Shown here one piece after another: positions 6,689 through 59,875 of a stretch of DNA of 64,000 nucleotides. Both the position numbers and the translations under genes were made by a program. The stretch comes from Laetmonice hystrix (taxonomy: Eukaryota). The stretch spans positions 6,264,001 to 6,328,000 of the forward strand of contig OZ249436.1 of assembly GCA_965235115.1 (NCBI GenBank), read 5' to 3'. The notes beneath the pieces are model-generated. The model was not told where the DNA came from. It worked only from the letters and a program-made list of their open reading frames with translations, and did no database searches. Each line of letters opens with the position of its first letter. Position 1 is the stretch's first letter.

Positions 6689-6760
6689 GGTTCCGTGGTG
6701 TAACGGTTAGCACTCAGGACTCTGAATCCTGCGATCCGAGTTCAAATCTCGGCGGAACCT
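6689..6760 (+). tRNA. trnQ-CTG: tRNA-Gln (anticodon CTG)
   Basis: GGTTCCG...CGGAACCT acceptor stem, anticodon arm CAGGA-CT-CTG-AA-TCCTG, T-arm CCGAG-TTCAAAT-CTCGG; T6 Pol III terminator at ~6773-6778. Confidence 0.97.
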
Positions 6761-9618: not shown

Positions 9619-12600
9619 TCATGTGGCGGTCCTAAAAAGGGCAATGAGATCTTTTCGCTGTATTTCGAAGTCATAAACCTGTAATGTAATGAAAATTGGG
9701 ATTTTATAGATGAGAAGTCCGCCTGAATGAGTGGACAATTGAATATAAAACTTCGACAACAACTTCTGTCGTTTATAAGTCTGAACTAATCGGGCATAGC
9801 CTCATTTATCTTCAGTGGTTCGGTGTCTTGGTACATTATGATTACATTATCATTACATTATGATTACATTATGATTCAGTTTGCTTTCCTCTCACTGTAT
9901 ACAATCACATTGCACACATTCAGTTCCGATCGCCATTAACAATATTAGGAATAGATTATGTTATTACAGATCGGCCATTCCCAGACACTATGATCGCTAC
10001 ATCAGCGTTCCCAATTATCATCTTCATTGTATAAGTCCTGAATCTTACCGGCGAGAAAATGGGAATTAATATAACTGGCATCTTATCGGATTCGATCATG
10101 TAATAAAAATAAGTGGCCATTTCAACACGTAGCGTACGACGATTTCAAATTACCCCCAAAACGGTAATGATATTCGAATACTTTGGTCTTGGAACAATCC
10201 TTCACCTTCAATGATATACAAACCACTGGTTGTCACTCTCACCTGGAAACTTGTCTGGATTGTCTTCCGGTCTGGGAACCGTGCGACAACAGCCATACCA
10301 CGCTCCATACACGACCGTATCATCACCTGAATTATAGACAACATGATTCCACACTGAGGTCATAAATATGATCGTGCTCCTAATGATTCCACACTGAGGT
10401 CATAAATATGATCGTGCTCCTAATGATTCCACACTGACGTCATAAATATGATCGTGCTCCTAAATCACAGTGCATTAACTCGGATAATTACATTCGTTTT
10501 CAGACACTGTCATAGTGTGTGATAGAGTGCATAATTATACAGGGGTAAAGATTTGGAGATATAGTGGCTATGCCAACTACCGTAGCCCCTGTAAAATGAT
10601 TCGATGTTCTATCATTTGCCCCCCCCCCCACCCAAAGGAGCTACGATGTAGCTACAATTATGTACACAAGCTCGTCACACTCGACGTGACTAAGTTACCC
10701 ATGCTGCCACGTTTTGCCACAGTTATCAAGAAATATTTCCCGTCTAGATTTACCTGCTCCTGGCTGCGTGTCGTTTTCTCTGAGATATTTACCTGTTCCT
10801 GGCTGCGTGTCGTTTTCTCTGAGATATTTACCTGTTCCTGGCTGCGTGTCGTTTTCTCTGAGATATTTACCTGTTCCTGGCTGCGGGTCGTTTTCTCTGA
10901 GATATTTACCTGCTCCTGGCTGGGTGTCGTTTTCTCTGAGATATTTACCTGCTCCTGGCTGCGGGTCGTTTTCTCTGAGATATTTACCTGTTCCTGGCTG
11001 CGGGTCGTTTTCTCTGAGATATTTACCTGCTCCTGGCTACGTGTCGTTTTCTCTGAGATATTTACCTGTTCCTGGCTGCGGGTCGTTTTCTCTGAGATAT
11101 TTACCTGTTCCTGGCTGCGTGTTGTTTTCTCTGAGATATTTACCTGTTCCTGGCTGCGTGTTGTTTTCTCTGAGATATTTACCTGTTCCTGGCTGCGTGT
11201 CGTTTTCTCTGAGATATTTACCTGTTCCTGGCTCCGTGCCGTTTTCTCTGAGATATTTACCTGCTCCTGGCTGCGGGTTGTTTTCTCTGAGATATTTACC
11301 TGCTCCTGGCTGCAGGTCGTTTTCTCTGAGATATTTACCTGTTCCTGGCTGCAGGTCGTTTTCTCTGAGATATTTACCTGCTCCTGGCTGCGTGTTGTTT
11401 TCTCTGAGATATTTACCTGCTCCTGGCTGCGGGTCGTTTTCTCTGAGATATTTACCTGCTCCTGGCTGGGTGTCGTTTTCTCTGAGACATTTACCTGTTC
11501 CTGGCTCCGTGTCGTTTTCTCTGAGATATTTACCTGTTCCTGGCTGCGGGTCGTTTTCTCTGAGATATTTACCTGTTCCTGGCTGCGTGTTGTTTTCTCT
11601 GAGATATTTACCTGTTCCTGGCTGCGGGTTGTTTTCTCTGAGATATTTACCTGTTCCTGGCTCCGTGTCGTTTTCTCTGAGATATTTACCTGTTCCTGGC
11701 TGCGGGTCGTTTTCTCTGCGATGTCTCCGAGGACGCGATCATGGTTTTCATTGTTCACGTCTCGCACCCTACACACAACAGAAAACATCTGACCCTCTAA
11801 GACAAGAGAACGCCAACTTTTCACAATTGATAGTAACGGGGTTTCCTGGAGGAGTCCACCTTTTGTAGGGAGTGTAGGGGTAGCCTAAAGAAAGGCATTT
11901 AATAAAAATAAAGCCAGGGTTCTTTGGGGATTACGAAATTTTTGGGGGTAGGGATGAAGGTACAGGGGTCAGGTTGGTGGATATATAGTGTTACCGATTG
12001 TACAGGGGTCGGGTTGGTGGATGTATAGTGTTACTGATTGTACAGGGGTCGGGTTGGTGGATGTATAGTGTTACTGATTGTACAGGGGTCGGGTTGGTGG
12101 ATGTATAGTATTACTGATTGTACAGGGGTCGGGTTGGTGGATGTATAGTGTTACTGATTGTACAGGGGTCGGGTTGGTGGATGTATAGTGTTACTGATTG
12201 TACAGGGGTCGGGTTGGTGGATGTATAGTGTTACCGATTGTACAGGGGTCGGGTTGGTGGATGTATAGTGTTACTGATTGTACAGGGGTCGGGTTGGTGG
12301 ATGTATACTGATTGCACAGGGGTCGGGTTGGTGGATGTATAGTGTTACTGATTGTACAGGGGTCGGGTTGGTGGATGTATAGTGTTACTGATTGTACAGG
12401 GGTCGGGATGGTGGATGTATAGTGTTACTGATTGTACAGGGGTCGGGTTGGTGGATGTATAGTATTACTGATTGTACAGGGGTCGGGTTGGTGGATGTAT
12501 AGTGTTACTGATTGTACAGGGGTCGGGTTAGTGGATGTATAGTGTTACTGATTGTACAGGGGTCGGGTTGGTGGATGTATAGTGTTACCGATTGTAGAGG

Positions 12601-38726: not shown

Positions 38727-39143
38727 TCAGTTAATCACTTGAAAAGCGTTGTTTTTGAGACACCAAAAGGCGACCCCTGGCGACGTGTCGTGGATACCGT
38801 TAGCGTAGAAGAATCCGTCCAGTGACGTATCGTTACCTGCAGTGGGCCAGACGGACACGGCTGAGGTCAGCATCCCCTTGTTGGACCAGATTCGGGGACC
38901 TGGCCGACACTTCTCCGTCAGGTCGACGTGTACACATCGGATTTTCTTAAAAAACGAAGGACCCGGTTGGGGCACTCCCGAATTGTCGTAGAAAAAGTCT
39001 CCGAGGGCCACGTAATCTGTGAGGAATGAACAGTTTAATTGTTAACTAAATCAACTCACACAACAGGGAGGACACGTGCAGACGAAGTGCACGTAGGAGA
39101 CATAAATCAATAATAATAATAGTAGTAGAAGAAGAAGAAGAAG

Positions 39144-39174
<31 letters not shown>

Positions 39175-40483
39175 GTACTCTTTACCCTGTGGACATGAAG
39201 CCCTCCACACAGAGCCAGGGTATAGTCCGACCGTAGTCCGAGTGTCCCAAATGAAGGCGAATGAGTTCGGCTTCATCAGAGCATTTCCAGTGGTGTCTTT
39301 AAAGGTCAGCAGTTCTTTCTCAAGATCGTCGTGATTTTTCTGACCTCGTTGACCTAGCACCACCCATCCCTCGCTTGGCAACAAAGGTTCATAGCACACG
39401 AAGTCTTCGCTGGAATGAGGGAAATATAAAGGTGCTACAGTTAGGTCGGTACCGTCGCTTTTTGTGATCAATTCGAGGACCTGACTCTTTTACAGAGTTG
39501 ATCACTTCCGAAACAGATTACATATAGAAGCTTAAAAAAGAAATAAACTGAAAATAAACTGAAAATTCACCCCACAAACACCCTTTTATTGGAGCTTTCG
39601 AAAAAAGTCGAGAAAGAATTGAAGACACAAGGTAGTGGACAGTTGAATTGTAGGCCTCTGTACTAACTGGCAGTGCTTGTAGTATACTGGCGACAATCTC
39701 CCTATTACAGGCAGCAATTCAAATACGACCATAAACTTACTTGGCTAAACTAAGTCTGTCGGACCAAACTTGTTTTGCTGAAGCATGTTTGACAGATATG
39801 GCAAGCAGTTCAGCATTCTGCAATAGGACAGAATGTCAATGTAGATAACGTATGTGGGGAGTGAGGAGTGAATGTCAATGTAGATAACGTATGTGGGGAG
39901 TGAGGAGTGAATGTCAATGTAGATAACGTATGTGGGGAGTGAGGAGTGAATGTCAATGTAGATAACGTATGTGGGGAGTGAGGAGTGGCATAACCAGTTC
40001 AGCATTCTGCCATAGCACAGAATGTCAATGTAGATAACGTATGTGGGGAGTGAGGAGTGGCATAACCAGTTCAGCATTCTGCAATAGCACAGAATGTCAA
40101 TGTAGATAAAGGTATGTGGGGAGTGGGGAGTGGCATAACCAGTTCAGCATTCTGCAATAGCACAGAATATCAATGTAGATAACGTATGAGGAGAGTGGGG
40201 GGTGCCGTAATAAAAGGAGAAAAACGTAAATTAGGCCTATAGTAGAAAGGAAGCATGTACATTTTAGGACCTCAAGAGATTTTTTCCCGCTATAGTTGCA
40301 GGAATGAATTTTCAAGTACATGGATTTTCAAGCCAACCACACCGACTAACGTTATTGCTGGTTAAAATATTTTAGTCAAACAATTTCTAAGAATAGGATG
40401 AAGGTGGGCCTATACACAAGGTAACTCACGACAGCGATGAGTGTAACCACGAAGGCCAGGCAGCTCCAGAGAAACGGCGTCAT
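38727..40483 (-). CDS. secreted Vps62/DUF946-like domain protein, paralog A (4 exons, 214 aa)
   Basis: Exons 40483-40430, 39817-39741, 39409-39186, 39016-38727 (645 nt; phases 0, 2, 1; GT-AG). Signal peptide MTPFLWSCLAFVVTLIAVNA. Three internal repeats with VWSD..DF.CYEP..P.EGWVVLG, IWDT..GSVWR..CPQDYVALGD, IRCV..DL..IWSN..VSVW, the pattern I recognise for Vps62/DUF946. Confidence 0.88.
39811..40190. repeat. ~72-bp and 39-bp tandem repeats duplicating the exon-2 acceptor of paralog A
   Basis: CAGCATTCTG (rc CAG|AATGCTG) at 39811, 40000, 40072 and 40145. Confidence 0.85.
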
Positions 40484-41940: not shown

Positions 41941-42750
41941 AGGTGATATGTCACGTATTTCAAATAATACGTCGTGTTTCAGCAAAAATATGTCTGCATT
42001 GTGGTTCTCCGATATGCCCCATAGGTCCCCTACCTGTTGGGGGCCTCGGGTGGCCGAATGGTCTAAGGTGTTGGCTCATGACGCCTATGACCATCGCCTC
42101 ACACCGCTGCAATCCGGGTTCGATCCCCGGCCTGGGCTGCATGTGTGAAAGGTTTTTCAGTCAGTTCCTTCCCGATGGTCGGTGGTTTCCTCCGGGTACT
42201 CCGGTTTCCTCCACCAAGAAAAACTGACTTTCATCATCATATTCACCGCCGTGATATGACCCTGGCTGTTGCAAGGCGTAAAACCCCAAATACCCACCCA
42301 CCCCTACCTGTTTATGTAGCTTTGGCCGGTATTTTGTAAAAGGAAATCGCCAATTCTGAATGCGGTCAGTGAAAATGACACACTTAGATTCCGAGACCCC
42401 GGGATTTGCAGCCAGTTGTGTTTTGCACCCTTTTCACACGATCGGCGGATGGCACCAATGGCGCGTGTTTACATCTCGAGTAATCACAGCGAGAGTCACG
42501 TGATCATGGGACCTGTTCAAACGATTCGCGGCAGCCAAAAGAGGCCAAAATGGCTAATTCATTGCAATTTGCGGACACTGCAGCTAAGTTTATTCATTTT
42601 TCTAAATTAGGGAGTATTTCACAGCGGTGTACTCGTATTATGTGTTAACAGAATCAATATGAAAAACAATCAGTGCCATAAAGTACGTCAGTAGTGAGCA
42701 GGTAAGCAGAAAACTCAAGATTCGGTCGATTCCCCCGTGACATATTTTCT
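41941..42750. mobile_element. TTAA-flanked Kolobok-like element carrying a nested SINE (duplicate at 45601-46410)
   Basis: TTAA|AGGTGATATGTCACG ... CGTGACATATTTTCT|TTAA; absent from the paralogous segment near 50530. Confidence 0.75.
42039..42300 (+). mobile_element. tRNA-derived SINE with V-domain-like core
   Basis: A box GTGGCCGAATGG, B box GGTTCGATCC, core GGTTTCCTCCGGGTACTCCGGTTTCCTCCAC; 12-bp TSD CCCCTACCTGTT at 42027 and 42301. Confidence 0.88.
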
Positions 42751-43246
42751 TTAATCATATTTCTAAAAGTTTAGGGTGCTCAATTGTATGGAACGTCGGG
42801 ATGGTAATTTATCATAACTGTTCAATGACACTAACGTAGATAAGGGTTTAAATGCTTGTAAGATGTAACTAGTGTCTCTGTTGTTAACCATGCAGCCATG
42901 ACATGTTTGTATCCCAGTATTGTATTTCTAGCCCGCAGGTAGTCACATGATATGTAGACAGGGTGAGACCAAAACCCGAAACACATGACTACAATCCCTA
43001 CATCCTTTGTGCCTGGATTAGCTACCAATCAGTGACATGTAGTGTATTATATTTTATTATATTTTAGTTAAGGACGCTCAAGTGTAGCTTTCTTATAGGT
43101 TGTTGGTGACATCATAGCCCCATCTGTACTGATGGACAGTTCTATAATAAGTTATGGTCATTCCCTGATTGGTTCGAGATGACATCATCCTACCATCGAT
43201 GTCCCAATTTTAGATTTCCTATTGGAATCAGTAGCTTAAGCGTTTG

Positions 43247-44420
43247 TAGGGTGTCTCAAAAAAATGGTAATCCAATGTCAAATGCTTAAAGGGGCATACT
43301 ATGGAACACGTTTTGGGGATTTCCGGCAATTGTTCAACATGACCGTGTACTCGGGATACAGGTAAATAATCCTACCACAGCATTTTGTCCTCCGACGTGT
43401 TTTCGCTGCGTATGCAGCACAAGTAGGTTCTATACGACCAAACGCATAGATTTCTCCCGATAGCACATCTCCCGCCATAATTTGGTAGACAACCTCCCAT
43501 CAACCCGTGTAATTGCGTACTGCGTCACATCCTGCGTGTACACTCTCTGCATGTGCTTACTCACATGCTTCGCTTAGTTGTAAACAATTCAGCAGTTGCA
43601 CTCGACCCTCCGGCATCAGAATGCCACCCAAAAAATATTTTACGAAATCGGCAGAGAAACGGACAAGGGAGCTTCATAAACTTCGATTTCTCACGCAAAA
43701 TGAAACTGATAAGTCTGTCTTTGTTTACCAAGCAATTTTAATGAAGGATATCTTTATGAAAATAGCAAAAGTTCTTTGAAATACCGATTTTTCACGTTTC
43801 CTCATAATATGCCCCTTTAATGTATGAAGAATGTGGATATTGTAACATAATGAGTAAATATGCACGATGAAGCAGAAGCTACTACCCTCGCAGACATGTC
43901 TTGTTTGTCTGCCTAGCGTCATGGTAAGCTGAGCACCATTGTCCAGAAAAGTTCCTCCAAAAATAAGTGTTTACCACTTTTGAATTGAAAGGCCAAAAGG
44001 CCATTGCATGTTGAAAAGTGCTGGTGAAGATCCAACTTGGACAGGATTATGTCATCGTCAGTTGCAGAATATGGGTTGGAGTCCATTCATGTGCAGTTCC
44101 AGTGACATATGGCTCACAGATGTTTCAGGCATTCTAAGTCAAAAGCCAAACTTAGCAACATGGTTCAACTGTCACTTGAACAGCGCGTATTCGTGGTGAA
44201 GACATTCCATGAAACAGGTAGCTTGGAAGCAACCCAAGATGCTTTCCGGCAACGTTTCACTGACAGAGATCCGTCAGCTAAGAATATCGTAAATATAATT
44301 AGTTGAGACAAAACATGTTTTTTATCCTCTCCATAGCGTCTGGTGTCACTGCCAAAAGTCTGAATGGCCTGATTCAAAAGTGGTAAACATTGATTGTTGC
44401 TTGCCATTTTCAGGCCAATG
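43247..44420 (+). mobile_element. 3'-truncated Tc1/mariner remnant (duplicate at ~46907-48080)
   Basis: Left TIR TAGGGTGTCTCAAAAAAATGGTAATCCAA; HTH fragment MVQLSLEQRVFVVKTFHETGS...FRQRF at 44160-44306. Confidence 0.72.
43290..43816. mobile_element. Kolobok-like MITE with TTAA TSD (duplicate at 46950-47476)
   Basis: TTAA|AGGGGCATACTATG ... CATAATATGCCCCT|TTAA; empty single-TTAA site at ~51932 in the paralogous segment. Confidence 0.85.
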
Positions 44421-44570
44421 CAATAGTGCAAAACTAACCGATCACACTACGCTGTTAGTATCAGCACACTGAAGGTTACCGCGGAATTAAAACTAGTCGA
44501 CTAACTTAAGGTGAACATCGAAACTTTAGGTTTCATAATTAGTTGTCATAGATGACATGGTGCGGATGTT

Positions 44571-45232
44571 TCAGTTAATCACTTGGAAAGCGTTGTTTTT
44601 GAGACACCAAAAGTCGATCCCTGGCGGCTTGTCGTGGATATCGTTAGCGTAGAAGAATCCGTGCAGTGACGTATCGTTACCTGCAGTGGACCAGACGGAC
44701 ACGGCATAGATCGGCAGCGCATCGTTGGACCAGATTCGGGGACCTGGCCAACACTTCTCCGTCAGGTCGGCGCGCACACATCGGATTTTCTCAGAAAACG
44801 ACTGATCAGGTTTGGACACTTCCGATTTATCGTAGAAAAAGTCTCCGAGGGCCACGTAACCTGTGAGGAATGAACAGTTTAATTGTTATCTAAATCAACT
44901 CACACAACAGGGAGGACACGTGCAGACGAAGTACACATAGGAGACATAAATCAATAGTAGAAGAACAACAAGAAGAAGAACAACAAGGAGAAGTGGTGTA
45001 CTCTTTACCCTGTGGACATGCAGCCCTCCACACAGAGCCAGGGTATATTCCGACTTCATTCCGAGTGTCCCAAATGAAGATGAATGAGTTCGCCTTCATC
45101 AGAGCATTTCCAGTGGTGTTTTTAAAGGTCAGCAGGTCTTCCTCAAGACCGGTGTGATTGTTCTGACCTCGTTGACCTAGCACCACCCATTCCTCGCTTG
45201 GCAACAAAGGTTCGTAGCACGCGAAGTCTTTG
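44571..45232 (-). pseudogene. headless copy (exons 3-4 only) of Vps62-like paralog B
   Basis: Exons 45232-45009 and 44860-44571 are identical to paralog B. The duplication breakpoint at 45337 lies in intron 2, so exons 1-2 are missing. Confidence 0.82.
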
Positions 45233-45698
45233 CTGGAATGAGGAAAATATAAAGGTGCTTCGGTTAGGTCGGTACCGTCGCTTTTTGTGATCAATTCTAG
45301 GAGCTGACTCTTTTACAGAGTTGATCTCTTCCGAAACTATGTTTACATCCAGAAAAGCGAGGACATTTAACACTTGTATTTTAAAGGGATTGACGAAAAT
45401 ATTTGTATCTTGTTGGAGAAATACGGAGGGTACGGAACTATGCCTCGTTTGCGTCCATGTTTTCGATGGGCCAATCACAACGCTTGCTTCGATTGGCCTT
45501 CACCAGGCTCTGTATACGAAGTCAATATAGAGCTGGGGACCTGGCTATGTGTGTTATGGGATCCCTGCCAGTAACGCATCAACCTAGCTACCTTTCTTAA
45601 AGGTGATATGTCACGTATTTCAAATAATACGTCGTGTTTCAGCAAAAATATGTCTGCATTGTGGTTCTCCGATATGCCCCATAGGTCCCCTACCTGTT

Positions 45699-45960
45699 GG
45701 GGGCCTCGGGTGGCCGAATGGTCTAAGGTGTTGGCTCATGACGCCTATGACCATCGCCTCACACCGCTGCAATCCGGGTTCGATCCCCGGCCTGGGCTGC
45801 ATGTGTGAAAGGTTTTTCAGTCAGTTCCTTCCCGATGGTCGGTGGTTTCCTCCGGGTACTCCGGTTTCCTCCACCAAGAAAAACTGACTTTCATCATCAT
45901 ATTCACCGCCGTGATATGACCCTGGCTGTTGCAAGGCGTAAAACCCCAAATACCCACCCA
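45699..45960 (+). mobile_element. tRNA-derived SINE (duplicated copy)
   Basis: Same sequence as 42039-42300 at +3660. Confidence 0.88.
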
Positions 45961-48230
45961 CCCCTACCTGTTTATGTAGCTTTGGCCGGTATTTTGTAAA
46001 AGGAAATCGCCAATTCTGAATGCGGTCAGTGAAAATGACACACTTAGATTCCGAGACCCCGGGATTTGCAGCCAGTTGTGTTTTGCACCCTTTTCACACG
46101 ATCGGCGGATGGCACCAATGGCGCGTGTTTACATCTCGAGTAATCACAGCGAGAGTCACGTGATCATGGGACCTGTTCAAACGATTCGCGGCAGCCAAAA
46201 GAGGCCAAAATGGCTAATTCATTGCAATTTGCGGACACTGCAGCTAAGTTTATTCATTTTTCTAAATTAGGGAGTATTTCACAGCGGTGTACTCGTATTA
46301 TGTGTTAACAGAATCAATATGAAAAACAATCAGTGCCATAAAGTACGTCAGTAGTGAGCAGGTAAGCAGAAAACTCAAGATTCGGTCGATTCCCCCGTGA
46401 CATATTTTCTTTAATCATATTTCTAAAAGTTTAGGGTGCTCAATTGTATGGAACGTCGGGATGGTAATTTATCATAACTGTTCAATGACACTAACGTAGA
46501 TAAGGGTTTAAATGCTTGTAAGATGTAACTAGTGTCTCTGTTGTTAACCATGCAGCCATGACATGTTTGTATCCCAGTATTGTATTTCTAGCCCGCAGGT
46601 AGTCACATGATATGTAGACAGGGTGAGACCAAAACCCGAAACACATGACTACAATCCCTACATCCTTTGTGCCTGGATTAGCTACCAATCAGTGACATGT
46701 AGTGTATTATATTTTATTATATTTTAGTTAAGGACGCTCAAGTGTAGCTTTCTTATAGGTTGTTGGTGACATCATAGCCCCATCTATACTGATGGACAGT
46801 TCTATAATAAGTTATGGTCATTCCCTGATTGGTTCGAGATGACATCATCCTACCATCGATGTCCCAATTTTAGATTTCCTATTGGAATCAGTAGCTTAAG
46901 CGTTTGTAGGGTGTCTCAAAAAAATGGTAATCCAATGTCAAATGCTTAAAGGGGCATACTATGGAACACGTTTTGGGGATTTCCGGCAATTGTTCAACAT
47001 GACCGTGTACTCGGGATACAGGTAAATAATCCTACCACAGCATTTTGTCCTCCGACGTGTTTTCGCTGCGTATGCAGCACAAGTAGGTTCTATACGACCA
47101 AACGCATAGATTTCTCCCGATAGCACATCTCCCGCCATAATTTGGTAGACAACCTCCCATCAACCCGTGTAATTGCGTACTGCGTCACATCCTGCGTGTA
47201 CACTCTCTGCATGTGCTTACTCACATGCTTCGCTTAGTTGTAAACAATTCAGCAGTTGCACTCGACCCTCCGGCATCAGAATGCCACCCAAAAAATATTT
47301 TACGAAATCGGCAGAGAAACGGACAAGGGAGCTTCATAAACTTCGATTTCTCACGCAAAATGAAACTGATAAGTCTGTCTTTGTTTACCAAGCAATTTTA
47401 ATGAAGGATATCTTTATGAAAATAGCAAAAGTTCTTTGAAATACCGATTTTTCACGTTTCCTCATAATATGCCCCTTTAATGTATGAAGAATGTGGATAT
47501 TGTAACATAATGAGTAAATATGCACGATGAAGCAGAAGCTACTACCCTCGCAGACATGTCTTGTTTGTCTGCCTAGCGTCATGGTAAGCTGAGCACCATT
47601 GTCCAGAAAAGTTCCTCCAAAAATAAGTGTTTACCACTTTTGAATTGAAAGGCCAAAAGGCCATTGCATGTTGAAAAGTGCTGGTGAAGATCCAACTTGG
47701 ACAGGATTATGTCATCGTCAGTTGCAGAATATGGGTTGGAGTCCATTCATGTGCAGTTCCAGTGACATATGGCTCACAGATGTTTCAGGCATTCTAAGTC
47801 AAAAGCCAAACTTAGCAACATGGTTCAACTGTCACTTGAACAGCGCGTATTCGTGGTGAAGACATTCCATGAAACAGGTAGCTTGGAAGCAACCCAAGAT
47901 GCTTTCCGGCAACGTTTCACTGACAGAGATCCGTCAGCTAAGAATATCGTAAATATAATTAGTTGAGACAAAACATGTTTTTTATCCTCTCCATAGCGTC
48001 TGGTGTCACTGCCAAAAGTCTGAATGGCCTGATTCAAAAGTGGTAAACATTGATTGTTGCTTGCCATTTTCAGGCCAATGCAATAGTGCAAAACTAACCG
48101 ATCACACTACGCTGTTAGTATCAGCACACTGAAGGTTACCGCGGAATTAAAACTAGTCGACTAACTTAAGGTGAACATCGAAACTTTAGGTTTCATAATT
48201 AGTTGTCATAGATGACATGGTGCGGATGTT

Positions 48231-49543
48231 TCAGTTAATCACTTGGAAAGCGTTGTTTTTGAGACACCAAAAGTCGATCCCTGGCGGCTTGTCGTGGATA
48301 TCGTTAGCGTAGAAGAATCCGTGCAGTGACGTATCGTTACCTGCAGTGGACCAGACGGACACGGCATAGATCGGCAGCGCATCGTTGGACCAGATTCGGG
48401 GACCTGGCCAACACTTCTCCGTCAGGTCGGCGCGCACACATCGGATTTTCTCAGAAAACGACTGATCAGGTTTGGACACTTCCGATTTATCGTAGAAAAA
48501 GTCTCCGAGGGCCACGTAACCTGTGAGGAATGAACAGTTTAATTGTTATCTAAATCAACTCACACAACAGGGAGGACACGTGCAGACGAAGTACACATAG
48601 GAGACATAAATCAATAGTAGAAGAACAACAAGAAGAAGAACAACAAGGAGAAGTGGTGTACTCTTTACCCTGTGGACATGCAGCCCTCCACACAGAGCCA
48701 GGGTATATTCCGACTTCATTCCGAGTGTCCCAAATGAAGATGAATGAGTTCGCCTTCATCAGAGCATTTCCAGTGGTGTTTTTAAAGGTCAGCAGGTCTT
48801 CCTCAAGACCGGTGTGATTGTTCTGACCTCGTTGACCTAGCACCACCCATTCCTCGCTTGGCAACAAAGGTTCGTAGCACGCGAAGTCTTTGCTGGAATG
48901 AGGAAAATATAAAGGTGCTTCGGTTAGGTCGGTACCGTCGCTTTTTGTGATCAATTCTAGGAGCTGACTCTTTTACAGAGTTGATCTCTTCCGAAACAGA
49001 TTACATCTAGAAGCTTAAAAAGGAAATAAATTGGAAATAAACATAAAAAGCGTTTCCGGGGTTCACCCCACAAACACCCTCTTATTGGAGCTTTAGAAAA
49101 AGTTGAGAAAGAATTGAAGACACAAGGTAGTGGACAGTTGAATTGTAGGCCTCAGTACTAACTGGCAGTGCTTGTAGTATACTGGCGACAATCTCCCTAT
49201 TACAGGCAGCGATTCAAATACGACCATACACTTACATGGCTGTAGTATATATGTCGGACCAAACTTGCTTTGCTGAAGCATTGTTGACAGGTATGGCAAC
49301 CAGTTCAGCATTCTGCAATAGGACAGAATGTCAATGTACATAATGTATGTGGGGAGTGAGGAGTGACATAACCACTTCAGCATTCTGCAATAGCACAGAA
49401 TGTCAATGTAGATAACGTATGTGGGAAGTGGCGTAATAAAAGGAGAAAAACGTAAATTATACACGAGAGGAGTACACAAGGTAACTCACGACAGCGATGA
49501 GTGTAACCACGAAGGCCAGGCAGCTCCAGAGAAACGGCGTCAT
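48231..49543 (-). CDS. secreted Vps62/DUF946-like domain protein, paralog B (4 exons, 214 aa)
   Basis: Exons 49543-49490, 49312-49236, 48892-48669, 48520-48231; same sizes (54/77/224/290) and phases as paralog A. MTPFLWSCLAFVVTLIAVNAELVAIPVNNASAKQVWSDIYTTAIKDFACYEP...CPQGYVALGDFF...FWCLKNNAFQVIN*. Confidence 0.88.
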
Positions 49544-54006: not shown

Positions 54007-57000
54007 CTTTCCTCCAGAAATGGCGTTCGTAAGTGACAGGGGGTTGGGTGTCTGTAACCCCCCCTAGGTGCCAAATATTTCTTCTTTAGGCTTTTTAGGT
54101 CCTAACTAATACTTGGATCCGTCCACTGTAACCCCCCCCCCCGCACCAATTAACCCCCCCCCCCCCACTGTACTAATCTCTGGGCACGGCCCAGAGTGAC
54201 GGGTTTCCAATTGATGAAGAAATGTTGCATGGACTCAAATTGCTAATTAAAAGTGATTTTTTGGGTACTTTGAGTGACCCCCAGCTTAATCCACCCGATG
54301 CAGAACTTAAGAATCAACTTTCCGAGATCCCACCCCCTCCCCAACATATTCCACGTCTCAAACCTTTTGGACTCAAATTGCTAATTAAACCCCTGTGGGC
54401 TCCCCGACTATTCGGCCTAGGCCTACTGATGCAGCTGGTCCTATTTTAATTAGGCCTGGTCCTGAAAGTGGACCTTTTCACTACTACATGCTTTGTAAAT
54501 GAGGGCATTAATAATTACTAAAGTAAATTAAATGTCGTATCATAAATCATCTACTACACCATGAACAAATTTGTTTCTATGTCATATTTCAACTGTATCC
54601 AGATTCGTGTCCTCGGTTAGACATGTGTCTAACCGAGAACCCTCTAGGTATGTCCTCGGTTAGACATGTGTTAAGTTCTCATGTCCTCGGTTTGAATGTG
54701 TGTAAAGTCCAGGGTAAGTTTAGCTTCCGTCTAACCGAGAACCCTCTATGTATGTCCTCGGTTAGACATGTGTTAAGATCTCATGTCCTCGGTTTGAATG
54801 TGTGTAAAGTCCAGGGTAAGTTTAGCTTCCGTCTAACCGAGAACCCTCTATGTATGTCCTCGGTTCGACATGTGTTAAGATTTCATGTCCTCGGTTTGAA
54901 TGTGTGTAAGGTCCACGGTAAGTTTAGCTTCCGTCTAACCGAGAACCCTCTGTCCTCATGTCCTCGTTTAGGAACTGTGTAAGTCCATGTACAGCAAGAT
55001 TAGCTCAAGTCGAACCGGGAGCCCTCTGTATATGTTCTCGGTTAGACGTGTGTAAGTGCTTCCCTGCCATCGCCCTCCCACCCAATAGTTTCTTGGCTAC
55101 TCCCACCAACATTCCATCGCCCTCCCACCCAATAGTTTCTTGGCTACTCCCGTCAACATTCCATCGCCCTCCCACCCATCCACAGTTTCTTGGCTACTCC
55201 CACCAACATTCCATCGCCTTCCCACCCAATAGTTTCTTGGCTACTCCCGCCAACATTCCATCGCCCTCCCACCCAACAGTTTCTTGGCTACCCCCGCCAA
55301 CATTCCATCGCCCTCCCACCCAACAGTTTCTTGGCTACTCCCGCCAACATTCCATCGCCCTCCCACCCAATAGTTTCTTGGCTACTCCCGCCAACATTCC
55401 ATCGCCCTCCCACCCATCCACAGTTTCTTGGCTACTCCCACCAACATCCCATCGCCCTCCCACCCAATAGTTTCTTGGCTACTCCCACCAACATTCCATC
55501 GCCCTCCCACCCAACAGTTTCTTGGCTACCCCCGCCAACATTCCATCGCCCTCCCACCCAATAGTTTCTTGGCTACTCCCGCCAACATTCCATCGCCCTC
55601 CCACCCAATAGTTTCTTGGCTACTCCCACCAACATTCCATCGCCCTCCCACCCAATAGTTTCTTGGCTACTCCCGCCAACATTCCATCGCCCTCCCACCC
55701 AATAGTTTCTTGGCTACTCCCACCAACATTCCATCGCCCTCCCACCCAACAGTTTCTTGGCTACTCCCGCCAACATTCCATCGCCCTCCCACCCAATAGT
55801 TTCTTGGCTACCCCCGCCAACATTCCATCGCCCTCCCACCCAACAGTTTCTTGGCTACCCCCGTCAACATTCCATCGCCCTGCCGCCCCACAATTTCTTG
55901 GCTACTCCCACCCATATTTAATCGGCTATCCGCCCCCAGTTCCTTGGCCACCCGGGGCCCCTGCCAAAATTCCATCGGCTACCCGCCCCACAGTCCATCT
56001 CCCGCATACATTCAACTGCTCTTAGCTGGAGTACCGTGCTTGACAACCCACCTTTCCTCCAGAAATGGCGTTCGTAAGTGACAGGCAGGTTGGGTGTCTG
56101 TAACTCCCCCCCCCCCCTAGGTGCCAAAGATTTCTTTTTTAGGCTTTTTATGCCCTAACTAATACTTGGATCCTTCCACTGTAAACCCCCCCCCCCCTGC
56201 ACCAATTAACCACCCCTGTACTAATCTCTGGGCACGGCCCTGAGTGACGGGTTTCCAATCCATACATTATAATTGATAAATTGGTCAGAAATGTTGCATG
56301 GACTCAAATTGCTAATTAAAAGTGATTTTTAGGTAGTTTGAGTGACCTCCGGCTTAATCTACCAGATGCAGAACTTAAGAATCAACTTTCCGAGATCCCA
56401 TTAATCGGCATTAATAATTACTAAAGTAAATTAAATGCCATATCATAAATCATCTACTACACCATGCAGTAGCGTACCCAGGGGAGTGCTTGGGGTGCTC
56501 AAGCACCCCGCTCAATTTGCCCAATTTTTTTTGGTGCGCTTGGTGCATACAACCCCCTCACAATTTGCAGCGCCTACGACGTTGGTTATTTCCAGCACCC
56601 CCCTGGGTCCAGTTTCTGGGTACTCCACTGCATGAACAAATTTGTTTCTATGTCATATTTCAACTGTATCCAGATTCGTGTCCTCGGTTAGACATGTTAG
56701 ACATAACCGAGAACCCTCTATGTATATCCTCGGTTAGATGTGTATAAAGTCCTCATGTCTTCGGTTTGAATGTGTGTAAAGTCCACGGTAAGTTTAGCTT
56801 CCGTCTAACCGAGAACCCTCTATGTATGTCCTCGGTTAGACATGTGTTAAGATTTCTTGAGATTTCATGTCCTCGGTTTGAATGTGTGTAAAGTCCACGG
56901 TAAGTTTAGCTTCCGTCTAACCGAGAACCCTCTGTCCTCATGTCCTCGTTTAGGAACTGTGTAAGTCCATGTACAGCAAGATTAGTTCAAGTCGAACCGG

Positions 57001-59875
57001 GAGCCCTCTGTATATGTTCTCGGTTAGACGTGTGTAAGTGCTTCCCTGCCATCGTCTTCCCGCCCCAGTTTCTTGGCTACTCCCGCCAACATTCCATCGC
57101 CCTCCCACCCAATAGTTTCTTGGCTACTCCCACCAACATTCCATCGCCCTCCCACCCAATAGTTTCTTGGCTACTCCCGCCAACATTCCATCTCCCTCCC
57201 ACCCAATAGTATCTTGGCTACTCCCGTCAACATTCCATCGCCCTCCCACCCAACAGTTTCTTGGCTACCCCCGCCAACATTCCATCGCCCTCCCACACAA
57301 CAGTTTCTTGGCTACTCCCGCCAACATTCCATCGCCCTCCCACCCAATAGTTTCTTGGCTACTCCCGCCAACATTCCATCTCCCTCCCACCCAATAGTTT
57401 CTTGGCTACTCCCACCAACATTCCATCGCCCTCCCACCCAATAGTTTCTTGGCTACCCCCGCCAACATTCCATCGCCCTCCCACCCAACAGTTTCTTGGC
57501 TACCCCCGTCAACATTCCATCGCCCTGCCGCCCCACAATTTCTTGGCTACTCCCACCCATATTTAATCGGCTATCCGCCCCCAGTTCCTTGGCCACCCGG
57601 GGCCCCTGCCAAAATTCCATCGGCTACCCGCCCCACAGTCCATCTCCCGCATACATTCAACTGCTCTTAGCTGGAGTACCGTGCTTGACAACCCACCTTT
57701 CCTCCAGAAATGGCGTTCGTAAGTGACAGGCAGGTTGGGTGTCTGTAACTCCCCCCCCCCCCCCTAGGTGCCAAAGATTTCTTTTTTAGGCTTTTTATGC
57801 CCTAACTAATACTTGGATCCTTCCACTGTAAACCCCCCCCCTGCACCAATTAACCACCCCTGTACTAATCTCTGGGCACGGCCCTGAGTGACGGGTTTCC
57901 AATCCATACATTATAATTGATAAATTGGTCAGAAATGTTGCATGGACTCAAATTGCTAATTAAAAGTGATTTTTAGGTAGTTTGAGTGACCTCCGGCTTA
58001 ATCTACCAGATGCAGAACTTAAGAATCAACTTTCCGAGATCCCATTAATCGGCATTAATAATTACTAAAGTAAATTAAATGCCATATCATAAATCATCTA
58101 CTACACCATGCAGTAGCGTACCCAGGGGAGTGCTTGGGGTGCTCAAGCACCCCGCTCAATTTGCCCAATTTTTTTTGGTGCGCTTGGTGCATACAACCCC
58201 CTCACAATTTGCAGCGCCTACGACGTTGGTTATTTCCAGCACCCCCCTGGGTCCAGTTTCTGGGTACTCCACTGCATGAACAAATTTGTTTCTATGTCAT
58301 ATTTCAACTGTATCCAGATTCGTGTCCTCGGTTAGACATGTTAGACATAACCGAGAACCCTCTATGTATGGCCTCGGTTAGACATGTGTTAAGATTTCTT
58401 AAGATTTCATGTCCTCGGTTTGAATGTGTGTAAAGTCCACGGTAAGTTTAGCTTCCGTCTAACCGAGAACCCTCTGTCCTCATGTCCTCGTTTAGGAACT
58501 GTGTAAGTCCATGTACAGCAAGATTAGTTCAAGTCGAACCGGGAGCCCTCTGTATATGTTCTCGGTTAGACGGGTATAAGTGCTTCCCTGCCATCGTCTT
58601 CCCGCCCCAGTTTCTTGGCTACTCCCGCCAACATTCCATCGCCCTCCCACCCAATAGTTTCTTGGCTACTCCCACCAACATTCCATCGCCCTCCCACCCA
58701 GTAGTTTCTTGGCTACTCCCACCAACATTCCATCGCCCTCCCACCCAATAGTTTCTTGGCTACTCCCGCCAACATTCCATCGCCCTCCCCCCCCCCCAAT
58801 AGTTTCTTGGCTACTCCCGCCAACATTCCATCGCCCTCCCACCCAACAGTTTCTTGGCTACTCCCTCCAACATTCCATCGCCCTCCCACCCAACAGTTTC
58901 TTGGCTATTCCCGCCAACATTCCATCGCCCTCCCACCCAATAGTTTCTTGGCTACTCCCGCCAACATTCCATCACCCTCCCACCCAATAGTTTCTTGGCT
59001 ACTCCCGCCAACATTCCATCGCCCTCCCCCCCCCCCAATAGTTTCTTGGCTACTCCCGCCAACATTCCATCGCCCTCCCACCCAACAGTTTCTTGGCTAC
59101 TCCCGCCAACATTCCATCTCCCTCCCACCCAATAGTTTCTTGGCTACTCCCGTCAACATTCCATCGCCCTCCCACCCATGCACAGTTTCTTGGCTACTCC
59201 CGCCAACATTCCATCGCCCTCCCACCCAATAGTTTCTTGGCTACTCCCGCCAACATTCCATCACCCTCCCACCCAATAGTTTCTTGGCTACTCCCGCCAA
59301 CATTCCATCGCCCTCCCCCCCCCCCCCCCCAATAGTTTCTTGGCTACTCCCGCCACCATTCCATCGCCCTCCCACCCAACAGTGTCTTGGCTACTCCCGC
59401 CAACATGCCATCGCCCTCCCACCCAATAGTTTCTTGGCTACTCCCGCCAACATGCCATCGCCCTCCCACAAAATAGTTTCTTGGCTACTCCCGCCAACAT
59501 TCCATCGCCCTCCCACCCAACAGTTTCTTGGCTACTCCCGCCAACATTCCATCGCCCTCCCACCCAGTAGTTTCTTGGCTACTCCCACCAACATTCCATC
59601 GCCCTCCCACCCAGTAGTTTCTTGGCTACTCCCGCCAACATTCCATCGCCCTCCCACGCAACAGTTTCTTGGCTACCCCCGCCAACATTCCATCGCCCTG
59701 CCGCCCCACAATTTCTTGGCTACTCCCACCCATATTTAATCGGCTATCCGCCCCCCCCCCCAGTTCCTTGGCCACCCGGGGCCCCTGCCAAAATTCCATC
59801 GGCTACCCGCCCCACAGTCCATCTCCCGCATACATTTAACAGCTCTCAGCTGGAGTCTGGCTGGACAACCCACCT
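54007..59875. repeat. higher-order tandem repeat: 3 units of ~1.6-2.2 kb, each with a 47-bp minisatellite and a ~100-bp subrepeat
   Basis: Unit start CTTTCCTCCAGAAATGGCGTTCG at ~54007, 56052 and 57697; 47-bp unit CCAACATTCCATCGCCCTCCCACCCAATAGTTTCTTGGCTACTCCCG. Confidence 0.92.
56467..56630. mobile_element. 164-bp CAGT...ACTG MITE (also 58111-58274; relative at ~61481-61622)
   Basis: CAGTAGCGTACCCAGG ... CTGGGTACTCCACTG inserted at CATG; unit 1 shows the empty site CTACACCATGAAC (~54555). Confidence 0.8.

Follow-up and report, generated by a model that had tools for sequence, protein, structure and literature searches.

In this work, we describe a 39-bp minisatellite that spans the junction of exon 7 and intron 7 of an AKR-like gene in the window (the whole stretch of 64,000 nucleotides of Laetmonice hystrix DNA analyzed here) and that multiplies the splice donor of this exon into 25 identical sites, each of which is in frame with exon 8. 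The array is a clean member of the kind of repeat known from the amphioxus mirages and from human F7 and IFI6, and its mechanism is already known in short form. We consider it probable that the first donor is dominant and that use of the other copies, if there is any, is confined to the nearest ones. That the downstream donors are effectively silent comes somewhat short of an even chance, and minor use of the nearest few donors is a tentative possibility. The first-donor reading is supported by the intact gene and by an orthologous protein that aligns without a gap over the exon 7/8 junction, and it is opposed by an excess of synonymous differences among the repeat copies.

Analysis with TRF placed 25.0 copies of the unit at positions 10748 to 11722 (reverse strand, as is the whole gene), with 94% matches and without indels, copy 1 being the real end of the exon. 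The donor CAG/GTAAAT (the slash marks the splice site) is identical in 25/25 copies, at positions 11690, 11651, and so on to 10754, and the spacing between donors is exactly 39 nt in all 24 intervals. The frame of exon 7 is open across the entire array, in agreement with an earlier note on this DNA, which had claimed 25 stop-free in-frame copies of 39 bp. That note had given the open reading frame as 10658 to 11824; the openness stands, but the start does not, since the stop-to-stop frame is 10658 to 11884 and position 11824, counted from the translation, is only its first GTG. Of the five other reading frames of the unit, three are likewise open. After the last copy, only the first 6 bases of the intron recur, and positions 7 to 12 of the unit match exon 7 at 5 of 6 bases. 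The unit spans the exon/intron boundary and keeps the splice signal intact in its copies, as in arrays of the mirage and F7 type; its previously proposed fixed split of 27 exon and 12 intron bases needs loosening, since 27 to 33 nt derived from the exon and 6 to 12 nt derived from the intron are possible.

A degenerate pattern search of the 627-Mb assembly found 25 matches to the unit, all of them inside the array, which is hence specific to this locus and drawn from the exon 7/intron 7 junction of its own host gene. Copies 2 to 25 fall into 15 distinct types, and unit-to-unit junctions are present in collapsed contigs of three DNA runs (from one sample, possibly that of the assembly itself); over positions 11684 to 11959, these contigs covered only 4 of 28 bins, with the repeat unit alone. 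The junctions in the contigs and the 15 copy types make a pure assembly artifact unlikely.

The geometry put forward in the earlier note is right in that any donor from 11690 to 10754 joins the exon 8 acceptor at 10326 in frame, and the proposed range of 293 to about 605 amino acids was borne out. With donor 1, intron 7 (10327 to 11689) is 1,363 nt long. With donor 25, it is computed to shrink to 427 nt, and exon 7 grows by 936 nt to 1,015 nt, giving a product of 605 amino acids; exon 7 exceeds 300 nt from donor 7 onward.

The coding part of exon 1 (22239 to 22331; 93 nt, 31 amino acids from the ATG) was located by tblastn with the N terminus of the related protein P0003 (E value, 2e-6). Exon 2 (15963 to 16127; 165 nt), exon 3 (15206 to 15319; 114 nt), exon 4 (14588 to 14653; 66 nt), exon 5 (13888 to 14004; 117 nt), exon 6 (13570 to 13673; 104 nt), exon 8 (10243 to 10326; 84 nt, with the acceptor at 10326), and the coding part of exon 9 up to the stop codon (9619 to 9678) were placed by a gene model and the P0003 alignment. 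Exon 7 (11690 to 11768; 79 nt) is entered in phase 2, left in phase 0, and ends at donor 1 according to the ungapped P0003 alignment over the exon 7/8 junction. Exons 2 to 9 add up to 789 nt and 262 amino acids with no internal stop and with GT-AG at every junction, and together with exon 1 they form an intact reading frame of 293 amino acids (31 plus 262).

A phmmer search with exon 2 yielded 41 proteins, the best full-length relative among which is P0003 (294 amino acids), with 172 of 262 residues identical over exons 2 to 9 (66%); the same search at longer lengths returned no homologue among 12 candidates. P0003 was obtained from a 1,988-nt Logan contig and is presumably the spliced transcript of a distant relative. 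It has neither a gap nor an insert at the exon 7/8 junction but, as the protein of a distant relative, is mute on splicing across the array. Of the eight matches to P0003 in the genome, the one at the host locus alone exceeds 30% identity, and the gene is therefore single copy among the scored candidates.

The assignment of the host to the AKR superfamily in the earlier note is upheld for family and fold: while none of seven single exons matched Pfam, P0003 matches PF00248 (E value, 3.4e-8; 33.4 bits versus a cutoff of 24) and solved AKR structures (E value, 1e-20), and the gene model matches the C7 AKR of this genome (E value, 2e-15). It does not extend to the catalytic tetrad, Asp-Tyr-Lys-His. 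In a sequence alignment, Lys alone is kept, and the window protein, like P0003, has other residues in place of Asp, Tyr, and His. Because three of the four tetrad residues are replaced, the host protein is AKR-like and probably not a standard reductase. Another homologue, P0015 (292 amino acids), shows tetrad losses similar to those of the window protein, and the three proteins may form a conserved noncatalytic AKR subfamily; a literature search on AKR pseudoenzymes returned nothing evidently on such a subfamily.

To place the repeated residues in a structure, an alignment-based model of P0003 (pLDDT of 85, with alternating strands and helices) was used instead of the single-sequence fold, which was poor (pLDDT of 49.6). 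In this model, the residues that the array repeats run from the end of the helix at 229 to 241 through a short loop into the helix at 245 to 255, of which they make up the first turn; the exon 7/8 junction lies three residues into this second helix. Since the repeated residues cover a helix end, a loop, and the first turn of the next helix, an insert would be predicted to protrude as a loop between these helices, the second of which would be completed by the last copy. The view that this insert is a functional, tunable S/T-rich segment is speculation.

The in-frame, stop-free status of the array is not beyond chance. Among 5,760 hypothetical donor-straddling units drawn from the eight donors of the gene, 1,920 have a length divisible by three and 1,181 (20.5%) are also free of stops, and the same gene has two further junction arrays that are out of frame. 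At exon 3, the donor is repeated in an array with a 62-bp unit (14954 to 15252) and five donors, of which that of copy 3 is identical to the real one; at exon 5, a 28-bp segment with the donor is duplicated (13838 to 13900), giving two identical donors at 13888 and 13860. Both were identified by TRF and inspection and retain donors that score as high as the authentic ones. Given that the gene has three such arrays, the probability of finding one or more in frame and open is 0.50. Three of the eight donors of the host gene are duplicated in all, and the copies of the 62-nt array alternate between two unit types.

Junction-straddling arrays are also found elsewhere in this genome. Our base-rate survey drew on 47 of 91 myosin matches and all 31 AKR matches, of which 73 of 78 were examined and 5 were dropped for short flanks; it is small and covers loci L009 to L054. 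An automatic screen flagged three donor-side and four acceptor-side cases, five of which held on inspection, and TRF together with reading by eye added two clear acceptor arrays and one uncertain donor case. This amounts to seven clear arrays in the AKR and myosin loci, with a unit divisible by three in two of the seven; one of the seven, a 24-nt donor duplicate, is in frame and open. Two more arrays were picked separately and lie outside this count: LIG1 has 22 donors 53 nt apart and out of frame, with 37 of the 53 nt of its unit derived from the exon, and an EGF exon has 29 acceptors 55 nt apart. The donors are intact in the out-of-frame arrays of LIG1 (L052:2015-3187) and of a myosin gene (L033:1649-2122), and the copies in both differ from their own exon mostly by amino acid-changing or stop-making bases. 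In an AKR1-like gene (L012/L013; G000:C29:21328001-21343000), almost all introns contain arrays; among these are arrays of 41 and 35 nt that straddle acceptors and a 24-nt donor duplicate that is in frame and free of stops. A preference for downstream donors would shift the reading frame at the out-of-frame arrays of exons 3 and 5 and of LIG1, so it is a reasonable inference that the first donor normally wins in this organism.

Repeats of this kind have some history. The minisatellite in intron 2 of human IFI6 (6-16, G1P3) has a 12-nt unit. It was reportedly described by Turri et al. in 1995, and the amphioxus mirage minisatellites are said to have been described by Canestro et al. in 2002. 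Tandem repeats at human exon-intron boundaries can give alternative transcripts (PMC2812944). In human F7, LMNB2, and PDGF, which have junction-spanning repeats, only the authentic first donor is used, whereas in IFI6, with 25 pseudosites, and in CBS, the first donor and two more are used (PMC1557585). IFI6 gives rise in this way to three mRNAs that encode different isoforms (PMC4526556). In minigenes of F7, splicing goes to whichever functional donor lies farthest upstream, and donors are used less with increasing distance; the pseudosites each work once the upstream ones are disabled but do not otherwise compete (PMC1557585). It is of note that this first-donor rule was tested in mammalian cells and on a unit that is mostly intron, with 4 of 37 nt from the exon (PMC1557585).

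The 37-bp VNTR in intron 7 of F7 resembles the array described here in that its first unit spans the exon/intron boundary and is followed by identical donors downstream (PMC1557585; Borensztajn et al. 2006). However, the F7 unit consists of 4 exon and 33 intron bases, occurs in 5 to 9 copies, and has a length that is not divisible by three, whereas here 27 to 33 of 39 bases are derived from the exon and 25 copies are in frame. IFI6 has an authentic donor followed by 25 pseudodonors, the two nearest of which are used constitutively (PMC1557585); this use has been demonstrated, while here the array is known from sequence alone, and the IFI6 unit is shorter than the 39-nt, mostly exon-derived unit in the folded barrel protein of an invertebrate. 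The amphioxus mirages (Adh3 and the globins BflGb6 and BflGb9) are similar in having several boundary duplications per gene in an invertebrate, with units of 10 to 160 bp (PMC3087553; Ebner et al. 2010). Length polymorphism and undisturbed regular splicing were shown for these exon/intron boundary minisatellites, in contrast to the sequence of one haplotype here, and the available part of the source mentions no synonymous-site excess among the units (PMC3087553).

The structure of the array is evident; for its origin, we propose that a short segment spanning the end of exon 7 and the start of intron 7 was duplicated locally and that ordinary minisatellite turnover then raised the number of copies to 25, as would have occurred at many exon edges in this genome. 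The spliceosome would mainly take the most upstream donor at 11690, giving the normal 293-amino-acid protein, and the remaining 24 copies would be mostly intron. Since the unit is, by chance, in frame and open, transcripts in which splicing slips to one of the nearest donors would not be subject to nonsense-mediated decay and would encode 13 or 26 additional residues, as in human IFI6. According to the orthologue model, the helix completed by exon 8 would receive its cap and first turn from the copy whose donor is used, and such rebuilding of the helix start would be a reason for amino acid constraint on the copies in use.

A possible signal of such constraint is seen among the copies. Copies 2 to 25 differ at nine alleles, of which five are synonymous in the gene frame, including all four alleles found in three or more copies. 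Counted over copies, 29 of 35 differences are silent, compared with 21 to 27% expected (pN/pS of 0.076); permutation gave P values of 0.014 to 0.055 by allele and of 0.001 to 0.005 when weighted by copies, which are not independent of one another. A toy model of neutral turnover reached the observed silent share in 1 of 1,628 usable runs (of 4,500). In further simulations, with 500 runs per setting and a single lineage without population structure, constraint on copy 1 only reached the skew in 1/270, 0/243, and 0/6 runs, compared with 4/237 runs for constraint on the first 3 copies, 9/151 for 6, 50/81 for 12, and 102/109 for 20. Light use of donors 2 and 3 thus explains the skew weakly. In untranslatable control arrays, 3 of 18 classified alleles are synonymous (P of 0.052 one-sided and 0.072 two-sided against the 39-nt array); the controls comprise five arrays with variable exon-derived parts and one unclassified allele, four others being without copy variation. 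The test was chosen after the data had been seen and concerns nine mutations only. Taken together, the skew is a modest hint that some extra copies may be translated; use of some downstream donors is on this account a live possibility, and the skew is the one reason why a ladder of isoforms may be kept alive.

An account in which the array acquired its synonymous variants by capturing alleles of exon 7 began from the 62-nt array, whose single exonic variant is silent, but was dropped as the main explanation. In LIG1, none of seven alleles is synonymous and the copies differ from the exon by amino acid changes, and the myosin copies carry a stop. Capture would also need four segregating sites among 5.0 synonymous sites, which is an implausibly high diversity, and constraint on copy 1 only fails to reproduce the skew.

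The foremost alternative to the first-donor reading is a real isoform ladder as suggested in the earlier note, in which donors deep in the array are used appreciably to give proteins with several to many 13-amino-acid units. As an added structural reason, the amino acids would be under selection because the start of the helix has to be rebuilt by the last copy, whichever this is. This would fit the synonymous excess over the untranslatable controls, the simulations in which about 12 or more copies are constrained, the 25 intact donors, and the position of the repeated residues in the orthologue model. However, the excess is limited by the small number of mutations and the borderline P values given above, five copies (7, 10, 11, 13, and 21) have amino acid changes that include Arg to Pro and Arg to Cys, and the intactness of the donors is unremarkable (P of 0.09). 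In addition, the five human cases listed in PMC1557585 use three donors at most, and preferential use of downstream donors would disrupt the frame at the out-of-frame arrays of this gene (62 and 28 nt) and of LIG1. We therefore regard a deep ladder as improbable.

It is even less probable that the whole array is exonic, with the last donor at 10754 as the main site, a 1,015-nt exon 7, and a coding-VNTR protein of about 605 amino acids. This would be the simplest account of the synonymous excess, in line with the simulations with 20 constrained copies, and donor 10754 is the nearest to the acceptor and is followed by ordinary intron, the remaining 427 nt of which are of normal length. A preference for the downstream one of two competing donors is known in some systems. 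Early duplication experiments on donor choice disagreed with one another (PMC1557585). Against this, exons 3 and 5 of the gene and the 53-nt array of LIG1 would all give frameshifts under a last-donor rule, a barrel protein would have to accommodate a 312-amino-acid low-complexity insert that is absent from its relative, and, as a weak point, the repeat open reading frame resembles no protein among 8,000 scored candidates of 224 to 714 amino acids. A deep ladder and a fully exonic array, considered jointly, are unlikely. Finally, harm to or regulation of splicing by other routes (exon 7 skipping, intron retention, or unit-to-unit splicing), lowering expression with copy number, is very improbable: skipping in F7 minigenes rises when the nearest usable donor is farther away (PMC1557585) and AG dinucleotides in each unit are possible weak acceptors, but donor 1 is intact with a score of 5.96, within the 3.8 to 7.0 of the other donors of the gene on a rough generic matrix, the unit is purine rich with no pyrimidine tract before its AGs, and the coding sequence is intact.

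As a repeat, the 39-bp array adds one case to a type of oddity that has been described before and is common in this genome. Its 25-step in-frame series of identical donors would be a natural ruler for 5' splice site choice in an invertebrate, with the out-of-frame arrays at exons 3 and 5 as built-in controls in the same gene. Should downstream donors be used, this would be notable in view of the maximum of three in the five human cases (PMC1557585), and the array would offer a path by which an intron repeat turns into a protein repeat. A bolder proposal, to which we assign a low probability, is that in-frame junction minisatellites are not silent, with many of the 24 extra donors used to give either a ladder or one 605-amino-acid coding-VNTR protein and with purifying selection on the 13-amino-acid unit. 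If this were true, synonymous excess would be a sequence-only marker of translated mirages and the array would be a snapshot of intron sequence becoming a protein repeat. No report of a long donor ladder was found in the literature searched, which excluded subscription journals.

The window contains several other repeats and genes. Intron 6 is filled by a 40-bp array of 39 copies (11960 to 13537) that begins about 30 nt past the donor. A different 40-bp repeat of three copies (10343 to 10463) stops 16 nt short of the acceptor of exon 8, and no junction is spanned by either repeat. An off-locus DNA match on C7 (L002), considered as a paralogue, was rejected as a noncoding repeat of intron 6. 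A tRNA-Ala gene (16811 to 16882) lies inside intron 1 on the strand of the host gene, and one tRNA-Gln and two tRNA-Leu genes are nearby (6689 to 6760, 24070 to 24151, and 24552 to 24633). At about 42000 to 49000, a tandem duplication with an offset of 3,660 nt contains identical open reading frames (44571 to 45312 and 48231 to 48972) and tRNA-His calls at 42042 and 45702, and a more diverged pair of related open reading frames is found at 38727 to 39489. Lastly, three separate arrays of one 47-bp unit are interleaved with repeated flanks at 55067 to 59727.
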